64,000 bases of DNA, taken from Botryllus schlosseri. Lineage: Eukaryota. Positions 32,706 to 55,600 of the stretch are shown piece after piece. Below the pieces are notes generated by a model that worked only from the letters and a program-made list of their open reading frames with translations, was not told the origin of the DNA and did no database searches. Each line of letters starts with the position of its first letter. Position 1 is the first letter of the stretch. Where the stretch lies: assembly GCA_051294905.1 (NCBI GenBank), contig CM119371.1, positions 24,120,001-24,184,000 on the forward strand. The letters run 5' to 3'. Both the position numbers and the translations under genes were made by a program.

Positions 32706-34172
32706 TCAATGTACTATTTTTAGGTGATACACGAACTCCTTTTGTTGACAGAGTTTTGGTTGGTGTATTTTGATAAAAGTTGATTCCAAGGCACACAAAT
32801 GGAATTGTGAACGACCTCGACCTACGATTCGAAATCGGTCGTCTCGATAATTATTCGCACAAATCGGATTATCCAACAGATGTTTGCCGATGGCAGATTT
32901 AATGGCCTTTGATCGATCAGCATCAATCTTAAGTGGATGAGTTAAGGGTGAGCTTTTCACATCGCGTGACGCACGTGTTCTGATAAATCTGGGGACATGT
33001 TGGTTTATGCGGTCCTGCAGACGTCTTGACGTTCTTCCCACGTAGCCACAATCACAGTGGCACCTATATTCGTACACTACATTACTTTGTTGAAGTGCAG
33101 GAAGCACGTCTTTGCGTGTTGAAGGGAGCAGTTGTGTTGTTGTAAAAATCACATTGGTTTTGACTGTATCGTAAGATTTACCGACAGCAGAAATCAATTG
33201 TTTTTCAAAGCGGGTGGAAATGGGGCCAATCCAAGGTAGATGGATATAAACATCTTTTATTGTTCGTGCGGTGGGCTCTGCTCGTTTTTCTGCGTTGAAT
33301 TGCATTAATTTCCTCTCCATGCCGCGGCTGATGACGTGTTCAGGGTAACCGTTATCAAGTAAGATTTTTCGGATGTAGTCAAGTTCTAAACTCAGTTTGT
33401 TACCCGAACATATCATCAACGCTCTATGCACGAGTGTGCCTATGAGGTTAATTTTTCTGCGCCGAGGACTAAATGAATTCCAGCGGAGGTATTGGCCTGT
33501 GAATGTCGGTTTCCTGAAAACAGACGTTTCAAATTTGTTGGTATTGCGCTTTTCAACTAATACGTCCAGAAATGATAACGAGTTATTGCGTTCTTTTTCT
33601 ATTGTGAATTGCAAGGCCGGGTGAAGCGAGTTTAAGCGAATGAGAAATTGGTCACACTCCGATTCATTCCTGAAAATGACAAATGTATCATCTACGTATC
33701 GGCGGTACAATAGTGGTTTGGCGGACTCACGCTGGGACAGAAGCTCGCCCTCGTAATACCCTACGAAAATGTTGGCCAAAATAGGTCCCAGGGGACTACC
33801 CATGGCTAAGCCGTCTATTTGGCGAAACATGACCTCGTTAAAGCTAAATTCCACGCAGCAAGTTGCCGCTTGTAAAAGTTCAACAAAGACGTTACGCGGG
33901 ATTGATGGTGGCGGTAACTTACCACCGTACAGCGCGTTGGCACAAATATCAATAGTCTCATGCAGCGGAACGTTCGTAAAAAGACTAGAGATATCAAATG
34001 AGCTCAGAAACACGTCTGGATTCGGCAAATCCAGGTTTCGTATTTCACCAGCGAACGTGAACGAATCGCGAACCGGTTCCAAAATGTCAATAAGCCATTT
34101 TGCCAGCTGATGGTGAGCAGACCCGATCATGGAAAGTATAGGTCTCACTGGGACATTGTCTTTGTGAGTTTT
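32706..34172 (-). mobile_element. Penelope-like retroelement ORF (RT + GIY-YIG endonuclease), 5'-truncated
   Basis: RT motifs KTHKDNVPVRPI, SFDISSLFTNVP, GLAMGSPLGP, YRRYVDD and FLDV. C-terminal GIY-YIG NVVYEYRCHCDCGYVGRT..R..QH. Confidence 0.93.
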
Positions 34173-36495
34173 TGAGTTTTTGAGTATAAGATATGGCTCT
34201 TTGCCAAATACTGAATTGATAAATATTGCAGCAACTTGTTATTGAATTTTATCGCGGCCAGAATAATTATTCTGCTGGCAGTATAAACATGTCTTTGAGA
34301 GGTAAAGGCAATGTCGTCTTCAGTTTAGGGGCTCGAAGCAGTCCCTATTTCAAAAATACAGAAATTTTAGTTATTGTCGCGACGGCGACCAAGATCACAC
34401 GCGAATTCGATGTACCCGACTCGAAATTCTGGATCGTGCGATACGTTAATTGATCAAAGAGAATAGCAGACATGGTGACGCCCATAGGACGATGCAGGTT
34501 TTATATATAGACATTGTCTTCTTGATCTACGGCGCGACATTAACCGCCGTGGACGTGACATTCACAATTAAAAACTCGAATTACAAACAACGCTATAGCT
34601 ATTCACTTTACTGATTGGTAGCTCTGCAGTACCGGCGATAAATGTAGGCGTGTAGCGCAACGTTATATGTTACCAACGAATACTTTGAGAATTGACAAGT
34701 CGATCAGTGTTTAGATTTTCGGAATCAGTGTGACAGGTGCATTCGATTACATTAATGTATATATCAGTTATAATAAATTCGAAGTTACTTAAGATGGATT
34801 GCGTTATCAATGGTGACGCTTGGCCTGTCTGTGCCTCACCTCTCGTTTCGCGCTTTATTTTCGAACGATGAATGTACAAATTATGTGAATTTGGGAGAAA
34901 TATGTTCAAAATCTCGTCATTCATGATCATCAATAGAAAATGCCAATAGTAATTGAAGGTTTCACAGTTTTCGTTCACTCATCACGAAGACGGTTGAGGC
35001 GCTGTCTCACTTTTCTCCCGTGACCTCACGTTGCTGATATATCACAGCTTTGAGTGGATAGGCCTACTGCTGTAATGGCCATTTTTGGCTTCACCTACAC
35101 GTGTGATCATGGATTCTGGTATTTTAAAGGAACATCACGATGAACATATACGTTGTCGTAACTCAAGTTTCGCATGCACAAATAAGTCAACCAGCATGAT
35201 TAGTACGAGTTTTTACAGAGCAAATGTGACGCACACGACAGATTTCGAATTAGTGCTACCGTGACGTCCCGAATTTTCAATTGTATCGTAGTAGTTGATA
35301 GCCATGTATGACTCATTGGGAGTTAAAATGGAAAAAATAGGGCCAATATGGCTCTTCGGCCAAAAACGGTTCCGACCGCTGATATAAGGTATCAATTCAC
35401 TGAAATGTTGGATTGGAATTATCAATATGACGTCATACGACATCATGAGGTTCACGTTCGCGTTCACACAGAACCTTTGGAAAGTGTTCGCGTTCACACG
35501 AACCCGAACCTTTCAGCGGTTCACACCATCCCTACTATTTTGTCGTTATGCGTCTGCTCTTCACTTCATACATTCCAGCACCTAACGCACAAATTTGCTG
35601 GGGATTATACACTGAGTATTATTGGACGAAATACCATTTATACTTGACTGTGAGCCGTTATTTTGATGTCAGTAAAATTGTGTCGAAATTTACTTTTCAC
35701 AGAGACGATCCTAAAGGACTCTGACCGGCAGAACTCAAGACATATATTTTTTTCTGGCGGGTATTCATCTAAGCGTTTAACTACAGTCTTCAAGAATTCT
35801 CGTTCCCGATTTTCAGATGCGGCCTTGAACGGCTAGAGAAATAACGAATATCCTCCATTGTAGCATTCATATGCAGAAATTGACCATAACTATTCATAGA
35901 AACCAACAAAAACTGTCGTTTACTTTATTTTTGTGGCATATTTGACCTTAGAGATCAATCAGTGCCGCATGCGGCTCTGACAGCTGCGGTTGGGAATCAC
36001 TGGTCTAAATGGACAATGTAAGAGCAAAATTTAGTTCTTTGCAAGACAAATCATTTCAATACACAACCTTTCATTTGAATATGGATTATTTATTATTTCG
36101 GAATGTGTTACACTCCAACGTCCACAACACATGGAGGACCGCCAAGTTTGGTTTTAATAATTTTCTGCCAAAATCATTATAGCTAGCCCCCAAACTGCAT
36201 ATCAGGAAACTGTGCTATTTTCGCAATCTGAATGTGACACCACGATATAGGAATAACACATTGGCCTACCATATTTCACAAGAACTTGGCGAGGTGGAAG
36301 CGAAACGTGGTGGAAGATAAATAAATGTCACAGCCATTGTAATAGAGACCAAATCTTTAATGTTCCTCTCCTTTTTTCGAGATGAAATATAGCCTGAGAA
36401 TAGTTTTACTAGTTAACGGAAATGCTTCGTTGTTGTTATGGGTCTATTACATAATTTGAAATGCAGAACTGCTCAATCCCAAATTCATGTATGCC

Positions 36496-37704
36496 GGGGA
36501 GTTATGGTACCGATGGATCACTGGGACCAAAAATACTTTAAAAATTCTTGATGATAATTACTTGATCACACTCCGTGAACTTGTTTACAATTGCATGCTG
36601 GCAAAATATTTAATCACATACAAAAAAATTCGACGAGCCCGAGCTAAGGGTCTCTGACAGATGTTTTCTATTTTTGGGGGTGTAAACTAAATTTCGATCG
36701 ACTCATACATTTTTCTTTGTAACCTTCAACATGAACAAGCAAGCAATCATTTTTAATGTGAAGTGTAGGGCTTGTATCAGGCTATATAATGGCACATATT
36801 ATTTTATTCAATACCTTCCTTGAGTGGAATTTTTTTCGATTCATGTATGTAATTCGCCGGGTGATGGCCGATGATACAATAGCCAAATCAAGCAAAACAA
36901 TCAAGCATGCTAATCATGCAGCAACTGAAACATACCTACGTACAGAAACTCTTTGCGTAATAATTGCAAGTGATGTTTTACCGATATATAACGAGGTATT
37001 TGGAATTCACAATGTCGATTTACGGGCAATATGTATGTACCCTCAATTTTATAAATTCGAGCCTAAATCGAAACGTGATTTTATGGCAATATTCGAGTCA
37101 TATTAATTCTATTTTTTGACGGTTGCAACTAAATATTCTTCCTTGACTTGCTGTAGCTTAGATTATAATACACAGGAAGAAAAGTTTTCACATCTGAGTT
37201 TTTGAGAGTATGTCTCATAGGTCCCCGGGTCGTGTGCCATTGGACCCACCGGGTGGGGACCGATGATACGTTCGAGCAACAAACATTGAACGTTCATAAA
37301 TATTTTTTGGAAATTACGGATGTTATGTTCGTTCATTTTACGTTGGTATCGTTTGTCTCTTATTAGTCATTACCGCCAATCATTATTTCCTCGTGTGTCG
37401 TGCTTTGTATTTATACCCTGTGTTCTGTTGTCTACTGGTCTTTCGTTTAACTGCACTCGTGATGGTGTCGCCTGTCTCAAGTTATTCTGCTGTATAATAT
37501 ACTGGTTTCATATTGCAACCTAGTCGTATTGAGTTATTGTTCAAACAAGATCAAGAACATAACAACGGATATTCATGTATATATGCGCGATAGGAAGAGC
37601 TTGTATCAAAGTGTTGAGCCAACAAAAGATCTGCTGTTATCAGCTGATTATTTTGAGGTCTTAGATCATTTTCCAATTTTTGATCCATCTGTACCACATC
37701 TCCC
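36496..37704. mobile_element. GGGGAG-TIR MITE (older copy with an internal insert)
   Basis: Colinear with 56188-57149. The empty site is seen at ~16895 in the paralogous block. Confidence 0.88.
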
Positions 37705-37769
37705 TACCTCCATCTAAATGTTCAGGGTTCGACATTGCATGCTACATCAACGAATGCATCTATATATAG

Positions 37770-38397
37770 CAGTGGTTCTTCAGGTGTTGCACGGAACATT
37801 AAGGGTTCCGTGGGCCATGCAGTCTCAGTGTTTTCGCGGAGGTTAAGAGACACAGGTAATTATTGTATGGTTGGTGATGATACTCCCGTCTTGACCATCA
37901 TTGGCAGCTAATAATTATGCCCGATCAATAGACGAATTGTGATTGGTGGTTCGTCGTATGCAGTGGCGTGGACAGGGTAGATTTGGGTTGGAAATCGAAA
38001 CCTTGTCCTTCTGAAATACCAATTTTATGTCCCATATTTATAAGCTCATTTGGTATTAAGTAGTCGGTATAACGCTGTTGCGTTACGACAGAACAATACG
38101 CTGTATCTTTTCAAGGCGTAGCCTCGCGTTTTTGAACTGGTATTTGAAAGGGAAGAGCAGAAGTCACAGTGATTTTCAAATATGTGTTTCTTTTTGTGTG
38201 AAAATTATGTGGTAAAGGTTTTGTCCTTAAGACAAATTCACAGGCCATTCCGTGCTCAAGTAGTAATCTAGAGTGATGTATTATATATGTAGTGGTGTAG
38301 ATTTTCGATTTTATGACTCAGAGAATATTTGGAGTTCCGCAAAGGCCTGCCGACCAGCATAAGTGTATCGCGGGTTAGATAAGGACAGGAACCACTG
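37770..38397. mobile_element. hAT MITE
   Basis: CAGTGGTTC / GAACCACTG ends with a degenerate TSD. A truncated paralogous copy lies at ~16960-17190. Confidence 0.7.
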
Positions 38398-39637
38398 ATG
38401 TATAAGCAGCAAGGCTGAACTCAATTCACCATTCCTATGACATTAACTGTTGCAGTTTTTGAATATCTGTCTAATCCGTCACCATGAATCCTGAAGCTAT
38501 TGACTCCACGGCATTGCCACAGTAAGAAACAAACAAGATATATTTACAATACAGCAAAATATTATTGAGACGGAAAAGAAAACACAAGCAACACGAATGA
38601 AAGACAATTTGTCGTATCAAAAGACATGTCAAATAATGTTAGGATGCCTAACATGAACAATGAAATAACACACTTGGTAATACTCAATACATAGTTCAGA
38701 TCAAATGAAATGGCGAAAGTACCGATACATAGATAAAATAAATGTTACAATGTCCGATAAACTGATCGGCCGAAAAGGCGTCGTCATATAGCAACATGTA
38801 TTGTCGTTTGCCGTTTTGAGAAAACATAAAACTTTTTAACATTACAAGCATGATGACATTCTTAACAAACGGGTTGAAATGTTAAATCACAGATTTTCCA
38901 CTTCCAACATATAATCAATACGCTCAATCGTCACAGTTTCAAGACTACAGAGATCAAATACGTATGTGTTTACGTAAAGTCTCACACTGGCCAATGGCCA
39001 CTCACTTTCTAGACACGCCTGGAATATGATGGTTGGCGATGACAAATTAACGTAACTTCCCACCGTAAATGCTGTTCTTTTGTAAAATTGTTTGTATGTC
39101 TAATTTTAATAAGTTATTCTAGTTAGAATTAATCGACACATGGTATACAGCCATTATCACAGGTAACCTATCAATTTGATCATGGTACCGCCATTTCCCT
39201 ATCTTGAAGGTTTTGTAATCTTACAAATGAGCATTTTATTATGATCAATCGTCGGCGTTATCTCAGAACGTGCCGCATCCATCTGTCATATTTTTATTCA
39301 AACAGAGGAAGGTTGTCTGAGTAAACTGGTGTATATTGAATTCAAACAATACAACGCACAATTCCAATGATCAAGCGGGGTGTATTTACGTTGTTTACAT
39401 GTAATTGTTTGTTCAATAAAGCAATAACGGTTCAATTCAGTCGGTACTATGTGGCAGTGTATTAGCTGTTAAGAGGGAAGAGATAAGAAGAGTGAATTGC
39501 TTGACACATATAATCTCCGTCTAATTAGTTTTGGATGCTATTCACAGTTTGATTATGAAGTCTATTTCAGTTGCCGACTCCATCAGAAGAATGAACCCGT
39601 AGTTTTTTTCATCGGGCATCATAGATTATAATTAGTG

Positions 39638-39884
39638 GGGGGGATAGCGCAGTGATGAGCGTCAGCGCCATCTACAGCAGGTGGCCCATATTCGGTTCCC
39701 ATTCGTCGTAGGTTATTCTGGGCTCCTCGTCCCCCGTGTCGATGTTCTTATCGCGACAAAGAGCCAAAATCTGACTGACTCTGAAGGCCTAACGCCCCCT
39801 CGTCCTCTCCCAGTCTATACCGCAATTTGTTTTGTATACTTCTTTATTTATTGATATGACAAAAAAGACTATCTATCTATCTAT
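39638..39884 (+). mobile_element. Decayed tRNA-derived SINE with (TATC)n tail
   Basis: A-box-like TAGCGCAGTGA, B-box-like TTCGGTTCCC, ends in CTATCTATCTATCTA. Confidence 0.5.
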
Positions 39885-40683
39885 AAAAGACCCGACATAG
39901 AAAGACGAAGAGCTAGGAATACCTTCTAAAAATAACCGACGTAGAAGGAATAATATCGAAGAATACTGTGACATCGGGAACTAGGTCGAGATGGATACCA
40001 GTTTAAGAGACTGCAACTGGTTGGTCTTTCGGCACCCCCCTATCTGTTCAATACATCGCATTGTGTGTTGCAGCTGTGGATCATGCCGCTTCGCAATCTA
40101 GCCACTCTTTTGACTGATCGACCCTTGTCCAGGCAGACATATGTCCAATGCCCCCTAAATTATACAGGTGATTCATGATGTTTTTCTACGCTTTCCGTAG
40201 TAATCGTGTTAGTGCTCGAGGTACATACATCTATGGTCGCGTTTTCGTCTAACTTTAGTCATTGTGTTTTTAAAACTGAATTCATCAGATTGATATGTCG
40301 GATGTCACAGACCAGCTATTTGATCATTTGAGTGCAACCAATATATCTAGAACGACTACTAGGCCTATAGAAGACAATCGCCTTTTACTGCAACACAAAA
40401 TTAAATTTTGAATGTGCCGGTAACCCGTAACGTTTTCTGATAGTCATGATATTGTGCAGGACGCGTTTGTGACGCCAAAATTGGTGATCCACAGGTTACA
40501 TGAGTGTTTGTGAACAACACGCGATAAAATCATCGACACTTACAGTCCAGAGTACTCGACTTGTAAGTGCGTTTCCGATAACCAATATCAACACAAAATT
40601 ATTAATGCGACAGGTAACTAGAAAAAACTAGGTGTTGATTACGAAGCGAACACTACAATCAGTGAAGACATTAATCTGTTGCA

Positions 40684-43600
40684 ATGGCAGAAGGAGGTCA
40701 CGACCCACGTCCTCCGAATATCAACCCGTCATTCGACACTGCCGTCGCAAGTGAGTGCTTATCTTCACAACCTGATGCAAGAGAAAAGATCTTTCGATTT
40801 CATCAATAATTTCAGCAGATTCTCCCCCCCTCGATATCTCGATTCAATTTCATCAGTAGGGTTTTCGAATTATGACTGTTAGTCTTTACCTTTACAAGCG
40901 CATAGTGACCAGTGTCGGCACCGTGACCCAAAACACCTAAAACTTGACACACACATCGAATCCCATGTAGCGATTTTGTGCCACATTACGCCACGAATTG
41001 CCAATTGTGACCTCGCCGTTTATTGACATTGTTATATAGATCCATAGGCACAATCCACCACAATACTGATATTGCGAGAAGTCATAATGCCAAAGAGGGG
41101 AAATTATCTCAGCAACCGTAAAGTTATCATCATTTGAAATGAAAATCGTCATTCTTTTTTGGGCGGGAATTCAAGTATCCATAGCCTCGCCTCGAAGCAA
41201 CCTTCAAACTTCAAACTTAACCAATATTTGCTAACAATAACATTGCCAGTTGAAATTCTATTCGTAACATTCCTACGATGTCGTGACGCATGACATGTAG
41301 AAGTGGAAAATTTGAAATAATCAACAGTTTATCGTAGCTGATGATCAATCAACTATTTCAATCTGAAATCATATATAATGGTCTCAATTTCTATAGGGCA
41401 TGGGTGGGCAGACCTTCTTCATGCACGAGCCGCACGTCAAAAATCTTTGCTTTGAAAGAGGCACAAAACAAAAAAAAAAAAAAAATACGAATTCATGACG
41501 TCATAATTGAATGCAAGCTTTTGAATGAAGTCTATTATTGTGTAGTGATACGATTCGTCTCCAATTGGGCTGCAGGGCGTTTGAAATCAGGCTGCTATGA
41601 CGTCTAAGCAGTGCGCAGCATATTCTTCTAGTGCTGATAACAATTTAAGGACGATTTCAGCTCGGTAATCTGGACGACATTTTCTTGGCTTATCTGCAGG
41701 TATTGCTAGCCTTCACATAATACGAATGGATGAGCCCTATTCACTAGTGCTAGCCCAGAAATGGTTGTAACCTGCGCTGCTGTAATTAATTCATTAGTTC
41801 AATGTTGAACACAATGTTTTATCATTGATTGATGACCAGGCATCCATTATTGCGGTTGAGACGTTTATGTGAACCCGATTCGAGAGTTCAATTACAAATT
41901 TCTGACCCTGTAGTGCCACCTTACCATAAATTTTTCAAGTCTTGCGTAAATAACAAGGAACAAAATAACAGGGAAACAATATGCATATTGTTAATACGCG
42001 ATAAAATGCGTCAATATATATTCAATTTAATCCCCTCCAGCAAAATGGCGAACCTCATGTGCATTGTGCAATCATTAATGAGCCGCAATCAAAGGCGGAA
42101 AGAGCCGCATGGGTCTCGCGAGCCGTAGTTTGCCCACCCCTGCTATAGGGGATCTTGATATCAACTCATCTACCGGACGTGTCATTTCAAGTGAGTAGTT
42201 ATTATTACCACGAGATAATAACGAATGAATAACGGAAGACCAATAATTGGCGGATCCATGCTAAGCAGTAACTTTCATACATAAATTGATGCTCGTTGTC
42301 CATTCTTCATTCATAGTAATAACTGTCATGTTTGATTCCTATTGTTTTTCAAGATGGGAAGTTTTGCTATGGATGGTGGGTTTATATTGTTTAATCTTTT
42401 ATAGAATCAATTTGTTCCGACTTGGAGAATTCCTAAATATTCGACATACCAATTGAAATCTTCTGACCTAACGTTTTGTATCATCTTAGGGCATGCAATA
42501 TTGGCTGAAGGTGATCACGTCATTCAAGACTTTCGAAATGCTACCGTGAACGTTGTTGCAGGAGACCAGTACACCACGGTCATTAATGGTAAGCACAGAT
42601 GGTCAGTAACGTCGTAACGACGTAGGCTACTTCTCCTTTTTCTGAGAGCTCGATTAAGTTTTGCCTCATTGCATTACTTTGTAAGGTTATTATGAATTTC
42701 ATGTGAAACTACTTACTTTTATACGCCGTGTTTACTTTCACACACTTTATAGACATGTTTACGTCTCTTTCACAAGTAAAATTGTCTCCACAAGTGACGG
42801 GAGAATTAGCTCCTGTGTCACAGTGATTGAATATATTTTTGAAAAGTTCACCTGTTTCTAGGGATTATTTTGAGATTTTATGTTGGTGTCGAAGATGCAT
42901 CAGAAATTTTAAAAGTACCCCCTCCTAAATATAAACGTGATCTCAAGTCCAAATTTACTTTTTCAAGTTAGGTAATCGCTTACTCTTCAGATCTATCCCT
43001 TTCCCCGCCCAATTGAAGCATACTATTCATAGTTTAGCAGAAATTTTGTAGCGGTATCTCGATTTCTACTTAGGATCAACGTTGCTACCGTGATAATCAC
43101 TGATCATTGGCTGTATGCCTACCGGTGTAATTGTTACGAGATTTACTCAACAAACCCTTGATATCGAAACTAGGAAAACAATACAGTGTATAATTCATAT
43201 TTACCACATCTATTAGCGTACTACGGCATAAGTTTTTGTGTAGCGGCTGTTGTTAAATTTAGCAAAGTACTTTCCACTGTGATACCAATAATATTGTGCT
43301 CACTTCAGGTTGTTCTATTCTGTTGTCGAGGACTCGCACAAAGTTCTAATCAGAGTATTAGACTATAAAAATGTAATTCTCAATTCCACTTACGACTGGA
43401 ACTGTGTTACAGATAAACTGCGGAATATTTATTACAGAGATCCGTGTGGCTAATCTACCTGGCACTTTCGAAAACAAATTAGATCAAGAGCAGATGCGTT
43501 TAGGAGCAGGTAAGTTACTATAGCACTCCATTATAGCTGAATGATGAAGAAATGTGCTACTTGTAGTGAACGACGCATTTACCAGTATATGAGAAATATA

Positions 43601-46600
43601 ACAATGAGTTAGAGCTGGTTTTATGCAGAGGCGGTCAGTAACGAAGTATTTTCACAAGTCCACTACTTCCTACTGAAGTGATTATATTTCGAATCACGTC
43701 TACTTACACTTGACGGTATTCAATTTTCTATGTGAAACTAGGCCTACAATATCTATTTGATACTTCTTCTTGGGTTGAAGTTTACGAGGTTACTTCAACT
43801 TTTACTTGTGTTGCAACTGTGCGCTAATAGCTACGATGGCTGCTCTGACCACAGTTGGTGCAGTTCATAAATTTCATCCTTCAGTGACTTCCTACATACT
43901 GATATTGCTATTGGCAGCGTGACTATTTGATACTCAAGTCCATGACAGATCGCTCCTGATATACCCCTGTTATACCAACTTGACCTAGCCCGCCATGGAA
44001 TAACTGACAGTCCTTATCATCACATAAAAAGTCCAATATTAACTCGACGCGTATACTAAAAAGCCACTACTCGGAATCGAATCAGTTAACCGTTTGATTT
44101 CGTTTAATCACGAAGTTCGGGTCCAGTGGTCCCCAACGTCGGCGATATCGCCCCCAAGTGGGCGATTTTGAGAAACCAGGGGCAAAATACCAAAGGGGCG
44201 ATTAGGAGGCGAAAATGTTAGAACGTCCTGTGAGGTATATTTAATTAACACGGCCACAAACGCACGTGAAGATGGTTTATTCTGCATATGACGCGAAAGT
44301 TCCATAAAAAAGTCAACTCAACAGAAAGTATAGACGCGGAAACCGGTTTTCCAAGCACCTACTCGAAGAAATGGCCTATTTCGGGCAATTCTCTAGTGAT
44401 CAGAGTTTGGTGAATAAATTTCCCGTGGATTTGCCGCGTTTTTTCGAATCCGTAAATATGTGAGGAGGGGGGGGGGCGAAGCTTTTGTGTCGAGCTTGCT
44501 AAGGGAGCGATGAATCGAAAAAGGTTTAGAACCACTGTTCTAGTCTAATCTAGTTTTTCGACCCTGAAGAGACTCCTGGATGTTAAAAAACTCCAGCATA
44601 TATATTCAATTACAGAATCAAGGGATGTCAATGCATGTCAGGGTACATAGGCTATTTGTCTCCTTCAGATGCGATGTCACCACGAATGTTGATGATATTC
44701 CTCGATCAGAATTTAACAAAATCGGTATTTTTCTATCAGTCAATGCTTATTAGAAAGTTCAAGGCTCTGTTTTGAATATTGCACGTAAATAAAATAGATT
44801 TGATCCGCGCGCTCATCTCATTTCCGATTAATTTTTAGAAATGGCGTTTCTAGCAAAGACTAGGCTACATCTGCGAAAAGAAGTTGGAGAAATCGAAATG
44901 CCCGCTCGTCCCACAACAATGGTGATTGATATGCAAACGGCCAATGACGCCAATTTCGGGAAAGCAGGTCATAGTGATAACAACAATGTATACGGTCGCG
45001 ACGTTGAACTTACCTCTTATGTCCAATTTCACGATCCCGTGAAAGGTAACGCTCCCAGGCATGTTATGATCCTCGGAGAAGCTGGGGCGGGCAAAACAAC
45101 CATATCAGGAATGTATTGTTTGGCTGTAGCTGATGGAAAAGTTAACACCCTTAACAGTGTCAAACTTGTTCATTATGTTCAGGCGGCCCGCCTTCACAGC
45201 TTAAGTGCCGCGAATGCCTTTGATGTAATATTCACCGAGCAAATGGCTAACGATTCAAAGACTGAATTGAGTGTGACCGAGAGAGTAGCTGGAGCAAGCT
45301 GGTTGGAAGAGAATTCAGAAAAACTGTTATTGGTAATTGACGGTCTAGATCAGTGCTTAGATAACTATGCAGCGCATAATCCTCACAGAACCATTCAACA
45401 AAATGATTCGAGAGTCAATAATATTATTGCAAGAGTCGTGGGCGGAGACAGATGGCGTCGTGCACGCATATTGACTACGTCGCGGGTGAATATTTATTGG
45501 AATCTGACTGCTGAGCAGAAACCTGACAAAGTAATTGGCATGAGAGGACTTGACGATGAAAATCTCAAGTTGGCGGCATCAGGACACTCTGTTGACGGGG
45601 ATAAGATGATAGATCAACTTCTAAATACTAATACCTCATTGAAATTACTAAATTTGTGTCGAAATCCCATGTTTCTCAAGTACACCACGAAAATATTCCA
45701 AACGAATAGTGAAAATTTACCAGATAGTATTTCTGGCCTCATGTCAGCATTTTTTCGTAATTTCTTCCGCTTATCCTCTAAAAAATATGATGATATCACG
45801 AGACTCGCTTATAATGGAATGTTGGATAATGTATTCGTTTTCTCGCGCCGTTACTTGGATAACCTGGGAATAAATCCAACTGATCTCAAAGACTTCCTTT
45901 CTGCGGCAGCAAATTCGGAAAAAGACCAATATACCGCTAACACCTTTGACGATGTGTTTGCTTTCGCTCATCAAACAATGCAGGTTGGATACTTTTATGC
46001 ATTTGTTTCAATAGCGTGGTCTAATATAATAATTTCCATCATGACAGATCTGAACTACCTACAGTGAGCAACCAATAGGCCCATGCTATAGGCAATTTAA
46101 CATCGTTGTGTATATTTCCAGTTCCCAATCATTTAGTCAGACCAACGACGAACATTTTCGTTTAGATTAATGAAATTACAATTATTCACCCGTCAACGCC
46201 ATAACAGCCGTGAGAACCCTTTGGATACACTGGGACCCATCATTACTGATACTTATGAACATGATTCTAGCAATGATGTCTCAGTGTGTAAATAGATTGG
46301 TAAACGACTGTTGAATATCCTATGTAATACACCACCTAAATTTTAAGATGGTACCATAAAAACATTGATACATTCATCTTGTGTTCCTCAGAGATATCCC
46401 TTAATCATTTACCGAAGCAAGATTTTGCCGACACAGTAAAAGTTGCAATCACGTTTATTCAATGAACAAACCTTAAACTGTTTTCGACACACAATAAATC
46501 AACAAAGGTATAGGGACATACAGAAAATATTTATCAGAAAAAGTAATTAGTGAACACCTTTTAGTAATTCCACAACCATTCATCAAACATATTTGAGCTT

Positions 46601-49600
46601 AGATTCGAAAAAAGCTTCCAAAACTATTTTTAACACGAATTAGAATATCATGCAGCAACAAAATACGCGCAGTATTAATATTACACTAAACTAGAACGCG
46701 AACGATATTAGAATTTTAGCATGACATTTATTTATGTTTATTTACTTGATATATTGGTAATGTTACGTAAAGGTTTTGCACATACATCGGCACGCCGTGA
46801 ATATACGGTATCAACAGGGTGCAGAGGAGCCGATAGGACATGAGTGGGCAAACTTTTGAGCTCGCGGGCCGTATTCAACATCTGAATCCATTCGCGGGCC
46901 GCACTATATAAAATGCGATTATAAACCAAAACGTAATATTGGTATTTGATAATATAGTGAGGGCATGGAGATAATATATGTTCTTAAACAAAACAAACAT
47001 TGCTTTGATGACATCGTACACGCGTCAGAAAGATAGTGGCGTGATTTCATAGGCTGGTCGACCTCAATTACCAATTTCTCAAAACTATAGAGATGAAAGT
47101 CGGTTGTCCCGATTCTTAGAACAGGATTGAAATTTAAATTTGTGAGCAGCGATCTGTTCATAGATTTACTAATTCCACTTGTGGTTCAGTTCCGTGAAAG
47201 ATGATGATGGTGAAAGATTTCGCGCCCCTTATCGTCACATCACAAAACGTAACCATGTTGCTAGCAACCTAACGGATAGTCGGATGGCATGGAAGGTTAC
47301 GACTATGGATGAGAGGTTTTAAATGTGAAATTCAGACTAAATACAGAGCAAGAATTATGAAATTGTTGGTAAATCGCGAATTTTTTTTTAGTTGAGCTCA
47401 GCTTCGCGCCCCACTTCTGATGCTTTCACGCACCCCCAGTTTGAGAACCATGCACTGCTTAGAATTATCATGGTGAAATATACCAAGAAATAGTTTAATC
47501 AAGTCTCTGCATTATTTCGATTTTTAGTAGCGCATTTTATCAATCTTTTTAAAAAGTTTCTTTAGACTCTCGCGGGCCGCACAGAACGGTGTGGCGGGCC
47601 GTAGTCTGCCCACCCCTGCGATAGGATTATGGAGGTTTTTATTGTGCTATATAATAGATAGAACGTGCCCCCTTCATCTCTTATGTTTCAATGTCAGAAT
47701 TTATGCGTATTTCTTCGTCGTATGCTCAGGAATTTTGCTGCGCATTGTATATCCCGAGTCTTGGCCTTACGGAAATGAAGAAATTTCTTACACATCATCT
47801 AAATCAAAGCGGAATGGAGTTGACCAGACAACTTTTATACGGATTGATTCTCAATGATAAAGTGACTAATCCAATGAGGAAATACCTAGCCGGTATGTTT
47901 ATGTGGCACTTGAATACTGTTACGCTTACTTTATTGCGTATTTTCCGATATCAGTGACGATAGGATGCGCCACGCACCACCCCATATATTTCCATTGATG
48001 GCATGCGTTATTGCGACCACCCAATAATGTTTGTTTGCGAGTATATAAAGCAAAAACTGTTGATAGAACTGACATATCGTAATCTCAAAAATCGAGTTAA
48101 CGAATGCATTTCGAGTTGGAGCAAGAAAATGATTGAACCGGTGTCATCGGAAATCCAAAATAATCCGTGTCACAACTACAAATGTAGCTACAAATATCAA
48201 AATAATTTCGCATCAATAAACCATCCTCTATATGCCTCGGGGTCGTCAACTCAAGAGCATGTCGCGTGCCGCTTTTAAAATTTGGTATGGGCCGCGAGCC
48301 ACAAAAATTCAATATCGAGACAAAATAGGACATAGATTTAGCAACCATGATATTCAATCCTTACGTCAGTACAACGTCGTGCCCTCTAACATGAGCGGCG
48401 GAAATAGTTCCAACAAAGGAAGTAATATTTTAATAATGAAATAAAAATTCAACAAAAACACCATGATTATCAATTCACTTTATTTTGATCTATGAGTTGC
48501 TCACGGTACCTGACAACACTTCTCAGCGACTAATGAATCTATATGGCGGCTGGTGAGAGACGGCGGTACTATCTGGAAGACTATCTCCTGGTAAAGCTTG
48601 ATCTGGTGGTGAAGACCTAAGCCGTTTCGGTCTTGGCCGTGTCTGGGCCATCGCACGTCAAGACAATATGCCCATTCATATCAGATGGTTATCTCTTGAC
48701 GGAATGATGTTTCCATCCCCAAAGTTGTTTCAGCTTGTGAGGAATAGTCATAATGGGTACAGTAGTAGAGCTTTTTTGAAACAGCAACAACAATATTTTC
48801 AACTGAAGTAATTCAGCATTTTAATTAGCGTTTTTCAAAAATCAGATCGCGGGCCTCAAAATATGACCTCACGGTCCGCATGTGGTCCGTAGGCCGCGTG
48901 TTCGTGACCCTTGGTAAATATCTTCAACAGTTTATCTCGGAACCGTAAAAACCGATTATATAACACCGTAAGACATATCGTCGTGTTGTGGTATGTGCGA
49001 AATATTATATCGCTACACCAACTCTCTCATTAAGTTATTTTCTCGTGTTAAATTCGAACCACGCTACGCTGGTCAGTGCATTTCTTTGTTTAACTTCATC
49101 AATATTGATACTAACATGACGTTGCGTGATTCACAGGTCACAAGTCCTCGATCCAGGCGTGTCGCGATATGATATTAGAACAACTACTTAGCATGGTGAA
49201 GGATGGCGCAATACGGAAAATTCAGACTGTTCGTCTACTGAGCGAGTGTGGAGAAAATACATTTCAGAAAATAGAGGAGCACGTTCAACAAGTTACAATC
49301 ACTACTAGAGACCTGCTGTACAGTGACCAACTTTTATTAGTATTATTGATAAAAAGGCTTTCACCCCTTGCATCCGTGCTCGTTTGGCAAATCACTCTGG
49401 ATCCATCGATGATATCGTATGTTAAAGACTGTCTCACCGTTGTTGATTTATTCGAGGTAACTGAAATAGGCCTATCAACCAATTTACTCGAAGTTAGCGT
49501 ATTTCAATTGAAGTATTATTCTCTTATGTTTTATTTTCATTGGTATTCATTCGTCGACTTCTTCTAAAAGGCTGGTTATGAGGTCATGGATTCCGTGAAA

Positions 49601-52600
49601 GAAATTAATTTTGCTGATGCAATTACAATCCTCAACCAATCGAAAGTATTCTACGTCCGCCTTCGCTGTAATGATGATGTGAAACATTTATTTCTTTCTG
49701 ATTGGATAAGAAGACCACAGGTATCACATCTTACAATATTCCAAGTTATATAGGAAAAGGAGTCTTCACCACATGACTTTTTAAAAGTTGCTAATAATCT
49801 GCTAAATGTATATAATAAAGATATTAGGCGAATAACATTGATTCCAGTAACGGTTTTTAATGCACTCATGACAATACGGCAGTTCAACACAGTAAGCGTG
49901 AAATTGTGCAATATTACTCGGTGAAAATATTGGTCGCTATGAATAGCTTATCTGTTGGACTGATGATAGAATCCTTGACGAATTGAACTACACATTCTCC
50001 TATTTCAGATTCAACTGCATATCATTGGCTTGTTAAATATAAGTCGTATTGATACGCTGACAAAATTGTTTGAATTTCTATCGATACACTCAATAGCTAA
50101 TCTGCGTCTGAGCATAAATTCCTCCATAATTGGATCAGAATTCAGAAAGATTATTACCTCGCATGGGTGCAAAACAAGGAAGGTGAGAACTTTGATTATG
50201 CAATCTTACTGCGGCAATACATCCTGTTAAGGGAAATAGCGTAAGAGTGTTTTGAAGTTGCCTTTACTAGCCTCGCATTGTCTATGAACTCCTACCATCT
50301 CAAATCAATAGCTACAGCAGCTTAAGGATTATCAAATATTCATACCATCGATCATAAAAATATGGAATTTCATTTTTATTTGTCGATGAAATTGGATAAT
50401 ACAGACAGGTCATTTATATGGAACTGAATAAGTATAAATTTAGAAAAGGTTTTTGTCACCAGAACAGAACTCAAAATTCAGACGTTCAACCGAATAAATA
50501 TTTCATTATCAATAGTTCTCACTGTTTTAGTGTATTCAAATGAGTAAATTATGTTCAATAATAATAACACTGGGCAACAATTTTGAATGGAAAATTTGTT
50601 GACTTTGATTTTTGCATTTGATTTAGGCTAATTTTGGTGTGCTGATTCCAAAAATGCCACTGGCTTTCTTCTATCACGTCAGCTTTTTTCTCTACGACAT
50701 ATGCCCAAAATATGCAAATTTTCACGAATTAAGCCATATTACTTTTCCATATTATATAAAAATCCACACCTTTGCCATATAATAAGTTATAGAGTCAAGG
50801 GTTCGATTGAATTATGTAGGAAAAGGGTACTGGTATCGATCTGGGCCGATGTTTCCACCCATTTTGGCTACACTGTAAAAAATCTGGTAGATTTACTGGG
50901 AAATCTCTGTAAATTTTACCACGAATTACCGGTCGCAGCCAATTACTGTGCGTAGCTTGTCATTTTACATTTTGATATGTAATATTACCTTAATATAGCT
51001 GTAAAGTAAGTTACCAGAATTTCTTTGCAAAATTACTGACAGTTACTCGTTACTGCAGTTTACCGGGCTATTGGCAAAATTGATTAGCTTCAAAATCGCT
51101 GCAGCCAATGTATACGTAGAACTGAATGTTACTGATATATCATTCTAGAGGTGATTTGACCTGATTGAACCTCGTTTGCGAGACTGGGGTCTGTCATACC
51201 GAAATTGTTGGCCCTAGTATCAATTTAAGCTTAGTAGGGTACAAGAAATAACTGACAATCGTAGCTAATGTGGTACACCGTAGCCATATTATATTATAAG
51301 GCAATGGCTGTACGGCAAGTCTCGCTGGTTACATTCGTTGTCACGGATAAGGCTGATAAGTTAGAAAATTAGTTCAGGATGTATAATATTGCTCGGGGAA
51401 ACTAGAAATATCGGCACCGCGTGCTCAGCTGACCATTTGTTAATGGCGGACAAGGCGACCTGTAGGTTACATTAGATGACTGCTTTTTCTGAGATTCGTA
51501 GTAAACAACCAACGCACAACTGTGACATCACAAGCAGCGTCTAGTTAAGTAAGTACAGTAAGTAGTGAACAACACATGGAATATATATCAATTTATACGA
51601 AAGTAGACGAAAAAAGGGACTTTATGCAATGATAAATGTTTCTGTATGGAAAAACGACCCAGATCAAACATTATAACGTGGCCAGTAAATATTATTGGTG
51701 TCATGTGTCAGCGGATGAATACCATTTATTTCGAAATCGTTCGAGTGTCGTCTGGCCAGTGGCCAATTGGCCATTACCATTAGTGAGATTTGAGCAAAGG
51801 GTGGAGCGAAGCTTGTTGTACTTGAAGAAAGTGGACACGATCGTTGAAGATTCCTAGGAATGCTGAATGGAATACGCATCTTAAAAGGTAATACAGTACT
51901 ACATAGTATTTGTTACCGTGAATATCTGACTCTGCACACCAGCCCTCGATGACTTAGATTTCATGATTGATATATTTCATTCGCCGCATTCTCTGTTCTA
52001 TTTTGGGATATTTGTCGACTTATATAGTGACCACATACTCCGCTGCGGAGGAGTTGAAACTGTTGGCTTGGTAATGTCATTTTCGGGCCATAGCATAGAT
52101 ATGTTTTCATCCACTGCTGGATTTGTTTGCCACACATGCCACCTTAAATTAGGAACCTTTTTGCTTCAATACAGAGATAAAGTCATGAATCTCAGTTATG
52201 TCATGTAAAAGGCGGAGCCGTCATCACACAATGTGTCAGTACCGGTACTTCAAAACATGTTATATTTTTGTTAGCCTATTTGTCTTAGTCTTTATAATGT
52301 CATGTCCAGTGTCCAGGTTAGAAACTTTGCTGTATATAGCGACTTACGCATGAATTCTTTTAGTGGAACTGCAAGATACTACTTACACAGAAGGAATGAG
52401 AACGAGAAAAAGAAACAATGGAAGTTTGGCCGGTGGTGGAATTAATTCACGTTTTCTTGAGACCACTCGTGTTACTGCATGTCTCCTAAAGAAGAATTAG
52501 ACCTCCAGCAGCAATATTTTTCCATCGATAACCACTTCATCGTGATATCATGAATGAATATACACTATACAGTTTGTTCCAATGTCGTTTTGGGGATGTG

Positions 52601-55600
52601 AAGAAAATGTTGCGATATTTTTGCATCGGGTTGCTTTGCGATAGGTAGGGATGTACGTGAATTTACAAGCTGGTATGTAATCCTGATTTACAGGGACAGC
52701 ATGTAGGTAGGTAGGCGGTAAAATGACAGTCTCGATCGCAAATGTACAGGAGAACATGTAGATCAGATATACCGGAGGTGACTGTAACATTACAGTCTGG
52801 CGTGTAAAGTGAGATTACCGGACGAGTGTAAGTTAAATTTACATTGACTAACGGTAATGTTAGATTACCACGAAATGTCTGGCTACCGTGCTTCCAAACA
52901 TTTCGCGGTAAATCGAGGTTTTTATTTTTTACAGTGTAGAGGATGCAATAATCCGAGGATATTTCACACACATATTTGATGCAAACTGAAGGATATGGCA
53001 AGAACAATAAACACGACATTTGCTATCCGCTATAGGCCCAATGCCCCATTCAGCTTATCCAGTGTAACTTGAAACTCCTATACGCTCGATGATTTGGATC
53101 AAGATGAAGATCTTAGCGGTAGCAGGCGAAATGATGAAGATTTTGAAGTCGACACGAGTTATTGATCTGACATAAGTTTTGGGACTTGGGATAGATATCT
53201 TCGGAACTTTTAACATACCTATGAAGTGAGAAAAGATTACTTGGCAACGTAGAGAAGGTATCTCACTTTCGATCAGGAGAAACAGCCTTTTCTTCGTAGG
53301 CCTAGTTTCGGTAGCTTTGGGTATTGCCGTGATACTGGCATTGGCATGATACCGTTACCTTGGATTACTGGAGGAGCTAGGAATCCCGATTTACAAGTCA
53401 AATGAATGGCAAATACCTATAGGTAGCTCAAAAAGCGACCTGAAGTGTGGCATTGTCCGAAATGACAAAGTCTTAGGTGCAGTAACAATTGCACACTCGG
53501 TTAGTATTCGTGAATAATACAGAAACATTAAGAGTAATACAGAAACATTGAAACATCATATGTGTCAGCTTGGAATTATTGTGTTTTCTAGTGGTCAGAC
53601 AATAAGGATGCACATGTAACCCTGATACACATGTGTCACTGCCATATCTTCATGTCTGACAGCAGACATTCAAAAAAGCTAAAATATCTGAGTAATTTCC
53701 CTAAAAACATTGACATAGTCAGAGATGGACAAGGAGAAAATGTCCCCCAACATCTGAAGAGGATGGGCGTAAGATACCAGAGTAGACTTACATATGTTAG
53801 CTGACTATCGCCCGAGTATCAAACTAGGCAACCTAAAGAATTATAGGTTATTAGCGTAAATTTGGACCCTGAAACTCGCATTTTATTTGTCATGTAGAAG
53901 CAATATCATTTAAAATCAACCAAATAAAGCAGTACAAATGTTTATTTGAAGACTTTTGATTTACTGTCGACTGCTTGTGGTTTTTGAAATGTTTTATGCA
54001 ATAAACACAAAATATTAAAACTGGTGTTATTATGTGGGTTATGAGACCATGCGGTGGGTGCCTAACTCAAAAAAATTGACGTGATAGAGAAAAACGGAAA
54101 TCATTTCTGAATTCAGCGCCCAAAAGTTAGTCAAAATCAATTGTCTGAGCAAAGTCAACAAAAATAGTGTTGACCAGTGAATCAATCTGTGATACATATC
54201 GATGGGTACATATAATCGCATAATTATCCTGGTCAACACATATATTTAGGCGGACAAAGTAAGAGCATTTGTGGGGGTTTTGAAGGCCACGGATTCCCGC
54301 GGGATGACGTTATTTTGACTAAAATCTCATATTTTTGCTGGGCTAGATAAAACATCGGCTCCGTCGTACTATAAAGTTCATAAATTCGATCTACTTGTAA
54401 TTTCTACACACTGAATACTGTTTGAAATCAAAAAATAGCTGCATTATATTTAGGATTATTCGAGTTATCGTAGTTGGGAACTTTCACGAATTTCATGTGC
54501 ATAAATAAACTAAAATCATGTATATAAGTATTTACGTGAATACTCAAATAACGTTGCATTAGTTCAATCAGTTTTGCGTCAACCACATATTGTAGATTCA
54601 ATCATTTGGAGAATAATATTAATAATTATTTATAATAATAAGGTTCCCGCAATAGAGTGCCATATGTCCATCTCATCTGCCCCGACATCTTTCTGATGTT
54701 GCTTTATTGTCTTGGTGGAGCCTTGACCCTTGCTATTCCCTCTAATCAACAATATGATCAGGAAATATATCAATATGCCTGAACAGGAAGTAAACTTTAT
54801 TGCCCATGTTTTCTCCAACTATTCCAATTTTCGGACCGACTATTTGTAGTTTGTTGCTTTGTGGTATTCCAAAGAGTTTTATTTACAACATTTAAAGAGA
54901 ACTTGTGTGTACTGAGATCCTTTTCCCTAATATGAAATTGGAATTTTCCATCGGTATTCGAATCTGCGGTCCATCGAAGATACCAGGTTTAAATGTCTCG
55001 TTTGATAGGGATACTTGGTATTCCACTTTGTTCGATCAGCGAAAAATTATCCATTTACAAGCCCAAAGAGATTAGACACATATGAGTATTGTAGTTAAGC
55101 TTTTCAGTGACAGATTTGATAGCTTTATACACCTCTTTCATCCTGGTAGAATGAACAACTGGTACATCAAACATAGGCTACATTTCGGTTGTGTAAAAAT
55201 ACAATTTTGGCTTTACAAACTGTTTTTGTTTTGATAAACATAGATCTCGCACCAGATCATGTTAATATGGATGGTGAGGTCAATTATCTATTTATGCACA
55301 GTAGAGAAGTAGAAAAATATACGATCCAATTCCTACCCAATGAAATATTCAGGGGTAAATACAGTAATTTTGGACTTTTTATGGGTATAAGTATCTTCTA
55401 AACTAGAGCCAATCTGTAAAAACGAATGCGATATTCGTAATCAGCAACCCTGAAACCCCCAGAAATGACTTCTAGTTCTTCTGTCATTTTTTACTTCATT
55501 TCGTTGACCAATGAATCAATCATCACTATAACTGACTTTCCACTCTATTTCTCTTATGGTATATAGTACTAACAATATTAACAGTTATTTCTTCAAATTA

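Follow-up and report, generated by a model that had tools for sequence, protein, structure and literature searches.

The NLRs of animals are thought to signal through filaments built from death-fold domains. Animal innate immunity also has a short beta-forming motif, the RHIM (of RIPK1, RIPK3, ZBP1 and TRIF, with the cRHIM in Drosophila), whose core is the tetrad (I/V)Q(I/V)G and which assembles homotypically into amyloid; it is not known from NLRs. In fungi and bacteria, NLRs bear N-terminal amyloid motifs, and basidiomycete strains often have dozens of copies on the NLR side and fewer on the effector side (PMC9815663). The same source and PMC12261475 give fungi, bacteria and archaea as the only groups from which NLR-linked amyloid motifs are known.

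Lineage-specific modules attached to NTPases have been described elsewhere. The NLR-B30.2 proteins of zebrafish carry N-terminal peptide repeats of ~30 aa that are family-restricted and exon-shuffled, and have no known function (Howe et al. 2016, PMC4852459). EAD10 (PF19954), from bacterial conflict systems, is a small non-enzymatic domain that is present on an NTPase core and on effectors and couples them homotypically; Kaur et al. 2020 (PMC7159879) describe it as mixed alpha+beta. Here we analyse an NLR gene on the plus strand (exons 1–6 at 40684–47893) of a window of 64,000 nucleotides from the ascidian Botryllus schlosseri, and the short N-terminal motif encoded by its third exon.

Gene structure and domain content

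The first-pass annotation of the window had read four small phase-1 exons spliced in frame onto a NACHT exon. Their coordinates, phases and AG/GT sites were verified, with all junctions of exons 1–4 and the NACHT exon being AG/GT and in phase 1 (Table 1), and the peptide given at that stage is, letter for letter, the spliced translation. Support for the chain comes from sequence and paralogs, since RNA-seq gave no coverage: over 40684–46067, four bulk RNA runs, sampled at 6–13% apiece, have a depth of approximately zero and yield no junction reads that speak for the chain or against it. At this level of evidence the exon chain can be taken as confirmed in the form in which it was first described. 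The 3' exons were mapped as far as exon 6.

Table 1. Exons of the NLR gene in window coordinates (a slash marks the exon/intron boundary)
Feature	Position	Strand	Description
Exon 1	40684..40750	+	67 nt; ATG, 22 codons and 1 nt; begins MAEGG
Exon 2	42149..42190	+	42 nt; phase 1-1
Exon 3 (motif exon)	42490..42588	+	99 nt; phase 1-1; acceptor TTAG/GG, donor ATG/GTAAGC
Exon 4	43438..43509	+	72 nt; phase 1-1; 17-residue register carries on
Exon 5 (NACHT exon)	44839..45986	+	pre-NACHT linker of ~70 aa, then NACHT NTPase domain; 3' end FAHQTMQ/GT
Exon 6	47731..47893	+	NLR continues, begins EFCCALY; acceptor CTCAG/GAA, donor G/GTATGT

Paralogs retain exons 1, 2 and 4 together with their splice sites, and the indels among them are in frame, of 3 or 6 nt. 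The donor of exon 1 is A/GTGAGT in phase 1, an in-frame TAA lies four codons 5' of the ATG, and homologues of this exon with the form CAATGGCAGAAGGAGG...GCAA/GTGAGT precede the motif exon at paralog loci L036, L037, L039, L047, L051 and L052. Exon 2 has 82–84% nucleotide identity in the C1 paralogs L032, L033, L034 and L038; its donor is kept in L033, L034 and L038, with L032 having AAGAGAGT instead of AAGTGAGT, and its acceptor AG is kept in L033 and L034 and altered in L038. Exon 4 is kept in L033, L005, L006, L008, L032 and L034, with 3-nt indels and a retained GTAAGT donor.

The translation of exon 3 is HAILAEGDHVIQDFRNATVNVVAGDQYTTVIN. It holds one complete unit of 17 residues (LAEG...) and the beginning of a second (VVAG...). 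Once the exons are spliced, the motif begins at residue 38 and its LAEG at residue 41; it is a short element at the N-terminal end of the NLR.

The NACHT exon lies in an open frame that spans 44832–46067, and the matches of paralogs to the 408-aa query stop near residues 383–393. This exon matches the Pfam NACHT profile (PF05729) with E = 1.7e-12 and 47.9 bits (cut-off 26.7), and it carries the Walker A P-loop GEAGAGKT (residue 173 in the spliced protein), bearing out the identification of the gene as an animal, in this case ascidian, NLR. The 47 downstream plus-strand ORFs gave no Pfam match to LRR or another repeat, in a search that small LRR exons could escape; the Styela relatives do carry LRR. 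Further along the window, an expressed unit at 51.8–52.6 kb has no Rfam match.

An effector domain of the death-fold or TIR type had been reported as missing from the N-terminus, and our searches agree. The Death, CARD, DED, PYD and TIR profiles are silent on the 72 plus-strand ORFs of at least 38 aa in 34223–44772, an ORF-based approach that could miss a domain divided among very small exons; death-fold matches in Pfam are also absent from the exon peptides themselves. The nearest of the 116 Death matches in the genome lies ~0.9–1 Mb from the gene. As had also been pointed out, the motif occupies the position on the NLR at which fungal and bacterial NLRs bear amyloid signalling motifs.

Copies of the motif exon and their constraint

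The exon 3 peptide has 103 matching places in the same genome. We analysed 83 of these copies, of which 81 are unique and make up the alignment and profile that we call A1. The consensus of the motif is A-x-LAEG[DE]-x-V-x-Q-x-F-x-N-[SA]-T-V-N-V-V-A-G-D-Q. Among the 81 unique copies, pairwise nucleotide identity at codon positions 1, 2 and 3 is 0.73, 0.79 and 0.47, and in the 63 nt upstream of the motif it is flat (0.36/0.36/0.35). An AG acceptor is present at the same position in at least 74 of the 81, and a phase-1 donor is recognized by a strict pattern in 62, with at least three others having GTATGT or GTGTGT. The motif exon is genuinely coding, and purifying selection acts on it.

Two other readings of this region were rejected. 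In many paralogs the frame upstream of the motif is hydrophobic and ends in LGS, giving the appearance of a transmembrane helix. This stretch has no codon periodicity (the flat values just given), in-frame stops occur at a median of 18 codons upstream, and the LG or SG is the translated [TC]AG/G acceptor. In one subfamily (L057, L077 and L082) the frame stops just after G-M, as though the motif were at the C-terminus of an effector; the relative P0017, however, reads through this point, and what is conserved there is the GGTATGT donor.

Association with NACHT genes

At 66 of the 103 motif matches, a same-strand NACHT exon is found no more than 30 kb downstream; in 200 random placements, such pairings numbered 1.3 on average and 5 at most. 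Two more copies were tied to NACHT by hand. The other 35 are without a listed NACHT, and many of them are probably NLRs too, because each added NACHT search assigned more. The ascidian NLR family comprises at least 160 NACHT loci.

The first-pass annotation had held that its reading would fail if the motif were not conserved in paralogs. It is kept there: in a hand-made collation of 22 gene pairs, the motif is 46–67% identical where NACHT shares only 21–28% identity with the domain in this gene. The module is tied to NACHT genes, and its conservation far exceeds that of NACHT itself.

Some of the copies without a listed NACHT are candidates for carriers of the motif that are not NLRs. Three copies on chromosome 8 (C8:3863738, 3917728 and 4008646) lie 4–8 kb upstream of NHL-repeat exons, without NACHT, although the motif and NHL exons are not directly joinable, because the motif donor is in phase 1 and the obvious NHL acceptor in phase 2. 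One further copy, at C3:16440081, is followed by a RING ORF 5.5 kb downstream. Within 100 kb of the copies without a listed NACHT, no Death or caspase domains were seen in the tables, which were inspected by eye.

Repeat architecture and predicted fold

The first-pass annotation had described the motif as a single beta-turn-beta unit of ~19 aa. This description is replaced by one in which the long form of the module consists of two to three pseudo-repeats of 17 residues: the self-similarity of 39 long copies peaks at offset 17 (z = 11.2; next-best offset, 3.4). In the present gene, G is found at position 4 in three successive 17-mers, LAEG, VVAG and NLPG, the last of which lies in exon 4. Most paralogs have the module in one symmetric phase-1 exon of 44–48 codons, an example of the long form being the 47-aa exon of L053, whereas in the subfamily to which this gene belongs extra introns split it over exons 3 and 4.

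The five residues most frequent in the core are V, A, N, G and Q; Pro is found there in just 5 of 81 copies, and the mean net charge of the core is -2.2. The AlphaFold2 monomer of the motif exon, modelled with the 81-row alignment, is unfolded, with a pLDDT of 63 and no secondary structure. Such a model would fit a segment that folds only upon association, and it would fit a simple linear binding motif equally well.

Comparison with known systems

The ascidian motif shares several features with the fungal, bacterial and archaeal amyloid signalling motifs. Like HET-s/NWD2 HRAM, PP, sigma, PUASM and BASS, it measures some tens of residues, lies at the very N-terminal end of a NACHT NLR, where it replaces the effector domain, and is rich in N, Q, G and V, poor in proline and built from pseudo-repeats. 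The presence of many NLR-side copies per genome is common to the ascidian and to Basidiomycota (PMC9815663). The motif nevertheless differs from these systems in that its core is acidic, it is encoded on an exon of its own and its host is an animal. The repeat period is 17 residues, as compared with the 21 given for HET-s (PMC4518210). In amyloid signalling systems the motif recurs on a separate effector protein, usually at its C-terminus; the ascidian genome has only candidates for such a copy. Membership in a known amyloid-motif family did not hold up: none of the 81 copies matches the Pfam RHIM, HET-s_218-289 or sigma-type profile at E <= 10. With the metazoan RHIM in particular, the likeness is one of motif type; the tetrad [IV]Q[IVLC]G occurs in 0 of 81 copies and PF12721 gives no match at E <= 10.

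Within animals, the zebrafish NLR-B30.2 repeats resemble the ascidian motif in being a lineage-specific N-terminal peptide of a massively expanded NLR family, a likeness drawn from their description in PMC4852459 and not a claim of homology. That source places the zebrafish repeats in several copies and, in some groups, beside death-fold and FISNA domains.

Among ascidian NLRs, the NACHT domains of P0020–P0023 from Styela clava are 31–32% identical to those of the large Botryllus subfamily. RefSeq lists these proteins under titles like "NACHT, LRR and PYD domains-containing protein 4C-like". They are likewise without a death-fold, and they begin with strand-like repeats rich in N, V, T, S, A, E and Q; P0020 has four near-perfect N-terminal units of 69 aa. 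Residues 1–284 are all-beta, with a pLDDT of 63–80, in one of five AlphaFold2 single-sequence models, and a fold search of this model returned nothing at E <= 0.001, the top matches being FapC and CsgA (E ~0.015, TM <= 0.19). The Styela repeats resemble the Botryllus motif in composition only. Homology between the two was rejected: the Smith-Waterman z against shuffles averages -0.4 to 0.4 and exceeds 3 in one of 156 comparisons. The motif is not detectable in the Styela clava NLRs, on which profile A1 reaches 0 bits at most.

EAD10 would, conceptually, do the same job as that proposed below for the ascidian module, namely homotypic coupling (PMC7159879). Three of the 81 motif copies align consistently to positions 33–68 of the EAD10 profile, at 12.5–16.3 bits. 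The best of these scores is below the 24.1-bit gathering cut-off, and no motif exon is among the genomic hits of the EAD10 profile, so that identity with EAD10 was rejected.

Run against 1.84 billion representatives, profile A1 found no annotated protein, its matches being confined to raw ORF calls from genomes and to four repeat proteins of bacteria. Word-indexed searches of protein databases with the motif and with the NACHT exon gave no match, Pfam has no match for the exon 3 peptide, and the best score in the ESM Atlas, 0.78, is uninformative. In the literature searched, whose coverage does not extend to subscription journals, we found no description of the motif or of ascidian NLR N-termini.

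Possible roles of the module

The reading we favour, while giving it somewhat less than an even chance, is that the product of exon 3 is the core of a module for homotypic beta-assembly, specific to the lineage, which replaces the death-fold at the N-terminus in a very large ascidian NLR family. The module consists of two to three 17-residue pseudo-repeats, each with short strands rich in V, I, F and N and a fixed [A/E]-G-[D/E] turn, and it would be the signalling and assembly end of the receptor. Oligomerisation through NACHT would gather these otherwise unfolded repeats, which could then stack between molecules as a beta-sheet, either beta-solenoid or cross-beta in type. If this sheet were to recruit or template a downstream protein bearing the same motif, the module would act like the PYD and CARD filaments of vertebrate NLRs and the HET-s-type motifs of fungal NLRs.

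That signalling proceeds by amyloid templating, as the first-pass annotation suggested by analogy with fungal and bacterial NLRs, is a plausible hypothesis, but one that we consider unlikely. The same doubt applies to its fullest form, in which the module would be the first amyloid or beta-solenoid motif associated with animal NLRs: a prion-like element of 17-residue repeats, which some hundred ascidian NLRs would carry on a symmetric exon spread by shuffling, and which, templated on oligomerisation, would signal to a few motif-bearing executors. Candidates for these are the motif-plus-NHL genes of chromosome 8 and the genes with two motifs near 11.44 Mb (C1:11442320+11439227) and 11.61 Mb (C1:11612247+11609749). 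A chordate would then have its own equivalent of NWD2/HET-S in fungi, either through convergence or by ancient common origin.

A beta-assembly module has to be weighed against other readings, of which the most serious, though we think it the less likely explanation, is a linear docking or regulatory segment. Such a segment would bind a single shared globular partner, be it an adaptor, a chaperone or an E3 ligase, or would fold onto the NACHT domain or sensor of its own protein for auto-inhibition, with no homotypic stacking. The disordered AlphaFold2 monomer and the acidic core are consistent with this, the second motif-bearing protein is so far a candidate only, and strong conservation of the motif against a fast-diverging NACHT is what is expected of a shared interaction surface. 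However, the internal 17-residue repeat and the strand-like alternation of V, I and N are unusual for a docking peptide, and 25–48 conserved residues are long for a linear motif. Tandem motif-exon pairs, which are found at at least seven loci, also suggest that copy number matters. The motif could instead be part of a larger globular N-terminal domain that has gone unrecognised, comprising ~95–165 aa of exons 1–4 and the pre-NACHT linker and having a novel effector or adaptor fold. Here the motif exon alone is common to the whole family, and a large subfamily has it in another context, as the single exon of 44–48 aa. This argues against a larger domain, as does the unfolded AlphaFold2 result obtained with 81 homologues, a model that covers the single motif exon. 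Exons 1, 2 and 4 are, on the other hand, also kept within the subfamily, ~70 residues separate the module from Walker A, and lineage-specific folds are often missed by Pfam. On balance we find a larger domain quite improbable.

A purely speculative reading, and a very unlikely one, is that the N-terminal strands form a membrane-inserting beta-barrel on oligomerisation. The NLR would then be its own executioner, in the manner of the plant resistosome but with a funnel made of beta-strands, which would account for both the absence of an effector domain and the lack of a proven partner. The motif does contain short amphipathic V-N-V and I-N-V stretches, but no alternating pattern is long enough to span a bilayer, several residues are acidic, and neither Pfam nor profile searches detected similarity to pore-formers. 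Finally, the motif might have no function, its copies being alike through recent expansion of the family or the exon being unused. RNA depth near zero in four runs points in this direction, families of this kind hold many pseudogene NLR copies, and several of the paralog NACHT matches contain stop codons. Against this stand the lower identity at third codon positions (0.47, versus 0.73 and 0.79 at the first and second) next to an upstream region flat at 0.36, the persistence of the motif where NACHT identity has fallen to 21–28%, and the conservation of the splice sites. A non-functional motif is already disfavoured by these observations, and we regard it as the most improbable of the readings considered here.

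Implications

The analysis describes a chordate NLR family of more than 100 genes which is without a death-fold, and in which the ATPase domain is conserved far less strictly than a short strand motif made of repeats. Profile A1 provides a handle for annotating these NLR genes, whose small exons are missed by gene callers. Should the motif prove to be a docking site only, it would still mark, for the largest family of innate receptors in this animal, the point of entry into signalling. Whether animal NLRs ever passed on their signal by prion-like templating is a long-standing question. A family without a death-fold that bears so strictly kept a strand motif makes it directly testable with a peptide of 47 residues.

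Structure of the gene

The window corresponds to C1:24120001-24184000 of the 495-Mb host genome (chromosomes are numbered C1, C8 and so on). The first-pass annotation had proposed that four small exons splice in frame onto a NACHT exon, and when the sequence is read and the junctions are recomputed, exons 1-5 have canonical AG/GT borders with phase 1 at every junction, and their spliced translation is exactly the peptide proposed. Exon 1 has an in-frame stop 4 codons 5' of its ATG; exon 3 translates as HAILAEGDHVIQDFRNATVNVVAGDQYTTVIN, a peptide that matches no family in Pfam; and exon 5 is a NACHT domain (E = 1.7e-12). The gene runs on through at least one exon after the NACHT exon, and neither LRRs nor repeats of any other kind turn up in the scanned ORFs downstream of the latter. 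Bulk RNA-seq, sampled at 6-13% from each of four runs that carry the same species label, yields near-zero reads over 40.2-46.1 kb. RNA evidence is missing rather than negative; the sole signal there is an A-run at ~41.47 kb, trapping poly(A) tails.

Positions of features in the window and of the chromosome 8 cluster
Feature	Position	Strand	Length	Remark
Exon 1	40684-40750	+	67 nt	
Exon 2	42149-42190	+	42 nt	
Exon 3	42490-42588	+	99 nt	
Exon 4	43438-43509	+	72 nt	
Exon 5	44839-45986	+		Pfam NACHT match
Further exon	47731-47893	+		
Short transcript	51777-52620	+ strand coordinates		Exons ~51777-51885 and 52362 to ~52565-52617
RT-like frame	32706-34238	-	510 aa	
Long ORF	7249-8121	-		
Long ORF	28267-29418	-		
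Long ORF	30337-30828	-		
Tandem cluster	C8:3.86-4.02 Mb			Motif exons 3863738, 3917728, 4008646; NHL exons 3867980, 3926084, 3978334, 4015851; no NACHT present

Three other features were observed in the window. A short, spliced and polyadenylated transcript is very highly expressed (depth ~2000x in RNA run X7), with a template-switch oligo at its 5' end, a GT..AG intron of 476 nt, a longest spliced ORF of ~54 codons by eye and no Rfam match; it is probably a multi-copy family, because 84-97% of its reads continue into unlike sequence. A minus-strand open frame shows, by eye, RT-like motifs (..YVDD..) as well as a GIY-YIG-like stretch at its C-terminus and is probably a Penelope-type retroelement. 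Three long ORFs with common stretches, such as RKRKLSPLR.NML.WLT.NAE, have the appearance of a repeated gene or element that has escaped annotation.

Conservation of the motif exon

The expectation that the motif would be conserved in paralogs is borne out by 103 genome matches to the 32-residue exon-3 peptide, 25 of them with E < 1e-3. The 83 matches retrieved yield 81 unique copies (alignment A1, in which the remaining 20 are not included), which align gap-free across a 25-residue core with the consensus A-x-L-A-E-G-E-N-V-x-Q-x-F-x-N-S-x-V-N-V-V-A-G-D-Q. Compared in pairs, the 81 copies have a nucleotide identity of 0.73 at first, 0.79 at second and 0.47 at third codon positions, while the 63 nt 5' of the exon give 0.36, 0.36 and 0.35, without periodicity. 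An AG stands at the same position in at least 74 of the 81, mostly as [TC]AG|GA, giving a phase-1 acceptor, and a phase-1 donor of the GT[AG]AG type follows the exon in 62, with GTATGT or GTGTGT in at least three more. Given this codon-position pattern, the flat upstream sequence, the kept splice sites and the conserved copies, the motif exon is genuine and under purifying selection, not a chance ORF.

Exons 1, 2 and 4 are also conserved inside the window gene's subfamily: in exons 1 and 4 the splice sites are kept and indels are in frame, while the donor of exon 2 is retained except at paralog locus L032, and that exon's acceptor AG is present in L033 and L034 but absent from L038. A membrane-helix-like hydrophobic stretch ending in LGS, seen in the upstream frame of many paralogs, was rejected as intron on the grounds that it has no codon periodicity and meets in-frame stops at a median of 18 codons upstream; its final LG/SG is the translated acceptor.

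Association with NACHT genes

The motif exon belongs to NLR genes. Two genome tables were merged into at least 146 distinct NACHT loci, all NACHT lists being lower bounds, and a same-strand NACHT exon lies within 30 kb downstream of 66 of the 103 motif matches, where 200 random placements average 1.3 and never exceed 5. The Pfam NACHT scan (best 94 of 224 candidates scored) let two more copies be tied to NACHT by hand, and one "orphan" motif locus, read entirely, has an unlisted NACHT 6.5 kb downstream. Searching the genome with the window gene's own NACHT exon (best 102 of 191 candidates scored as matches) found seven copies that are 72-81% identical and lie on the same chromosome within 0.7 Mb. 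For 22 hand-collated gene pairs, the NACHT exon is 21-28% identical to that of the window gene and the motif 46-67%, which at the sequence level indicates that the motif is under stronger constraint than the ATPase domain.

Repeat organization of the module

Most paralogs have a longer exon of 44-48 codons (for example AILAEGENVNLEFANSTVNVVAGDQINANKVVVNITRAEGEATPSSQ at locus L053), which terminates at a G|GTGAGT donor. The 39 long copies repeat internally with a period of 17 residues (z = 11.2 versus shuffles; next best offset 3.4), each unit opening with x-x-[A/E]-G-[D/E] and continuing with V/I/F/N-rich strand-like stretches. In the window gene the 17-residue register continues through exons 3 and 4, with G as residue 4 of the LAEG, VVAG and NLPG 17-mers. 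The beta-turn-beta motif on its own exon described in the first-pass annotation is thus the middle of a 2-3-unit module, split by extra introns in this subfamily.

V, A, N, G and Q are enriched in the core, whose net charge averages -2.2 and in which Pro occurs in 5 of the 81 copies. Conserved N-x-[ST] triplets (A1 columns 15-17; "YNIT" of the long forms) were also observed, at least one in 55 of 81 cores and 1.4 on average in long forms; in a cytosolic receptor these would more probably form a structural Asn/Thr ladder than be glycosylated.

Known families and other species

As had been proposed, no death-fold is found: none of the 81 copies matches any Pfam death-fold family at E <= 10, and the CARD, DD, DED, PYD and TIR profiles match none of the 72 ORFs 5' of the gene or inside its 5' introns. 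The suggested kinship with known amyloid motifs fared less well, with no Pfam match at E <= 10 to RHIM, HET-s_218-289 or sigma-type families in any of the 81 copies. RHIM carries a characteristic core tetrad, which none of the 81 has. EAD10, a bacterial homotypic effector-associated domain, was rejected: three copies align with it consistently at 12.5-16.3 bits, below the cut-off of 24.1, and its profile finds no motif exon in the genome.

Searched exhaustively with the motif profile, 1.84 billion representative proteins gave 18 matches, none of them an annotated full-length protein with the motif: 14 are short raw genomic ORF calls from B. schlosseri or a very close species, read through splice sites into intron, and the other four are repeat proteins of bacteria, DUF11 arrays among them. 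The closest named NLR relatives of the family are Styela clava proteins, likewise without death-fold, whose NACHT is 31-32% identical to that of the large subfamily with single long exons. They start with N/V/T/S/A/E/Q-rich repeats that resemble the motif in composition only. One such annotated NLR, P0020 (1155 aa), opens with a tandem array (residues 1-276) of four 69-residue units that are nearly identical and rich in N-x-[ST] triplets. One of five single-sequence AlphaFold2 models of the Styela repeats, the best of them, is all-beta, and a fold search with it returned nothing significant. As Styela NLRs also start with strand-like repeats, such N-termini may be a general styelid NLR trait, a resemblance of style for which we do not claim homology.

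Motif copies without a listed NACHT

No NACHT is listed for 35 of the 103 motif copies, the lists being lower bounds. Three copies on chromosome 8 lie 4-8 kb upstream of closely related NHL-repeat exons on the same strand, and one of these loci, read entirely, has no NACHT in between. The NHL family is large (191 first-look candidates, many on chromosome 8), and its obvious acceptor is phase 2, so the phase-1 motif donor cannot splice to it directly. At one locus (L066, C8:3916728-3926727) an LTR retrotransposon at ~1900-7200, with gag, protease, RT/RNase H and integrase ORFs and matching ends near 1982-2155 and 7006-7167, was observed between the motif exon and the NHL exons. A RING ORF of the C-terminal type stands 5.5 kb downstream of another motif copy. 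At no fewer than seven loci two motif exons follow each other in tandem on one strand; for the pairs at C1:11.44 Mb and C1:11.61 Mb, the lists place no NACHT within 190-360 kb. Around the motif copies lacking a listed NACHT, the genome tables, inspected by eye, show neither Death nor caspase matches within 100 kb. As read from sequence, these are candidate leads to a motif-bearing non-NLR carrier, none of them proven.

The 116 Death-domain matches in the genome all lie more than ~0.9 Mb from the window gene. Many are inverted pairs ~10 kb apart with identical scores (C4:20656892(+)/20667428(-), C5:25440527(-)/25450416(+)), and a caspase-like ORF of 257 aa stands ~16 kb from a Death match at ten loci at least (C13:24726282(-) with C13:24710226-24710843(-)); on both counts it looks as if a multi-copy element carries these genes.

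Role of the module

According to PMC12261475 and PMC9815663, fungi, bacteria and archaea are the known bearers of amyloid motifs linked to NLRs, and RHIM is the only amyloid motif that animals have. A close architectural analogue is found in zebrafish NLRs, whose N-terminal ~30-aa peptide repeats are called unexplained in a passage of PMC4852459; our search for literature on ascidian NLR N-termini found nothing.

We tentatively read the module as the element by which the receptor assembles homotypically and signals, at somewhat under even odds: NACHT oligomerization would stack module copies into an intermolecular beta-sheet. The version in which this templates amyloid in a motif-bearing executor is improbable. 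The leading rival reading, a peptide for docking or auto-regulation, is rather unlikely. AlphaFold2, given the 47-residue exon and the 81-row alignment, predicts no secondary structure (pLDDT 63, pTM 0.27), and a module that does not fold alone in silico is as compatible with a linear motif as with folding on association. A very large ascidian NLR family has a new, strongly constrained, repeat-built N-terminal module in place of the death-fold.
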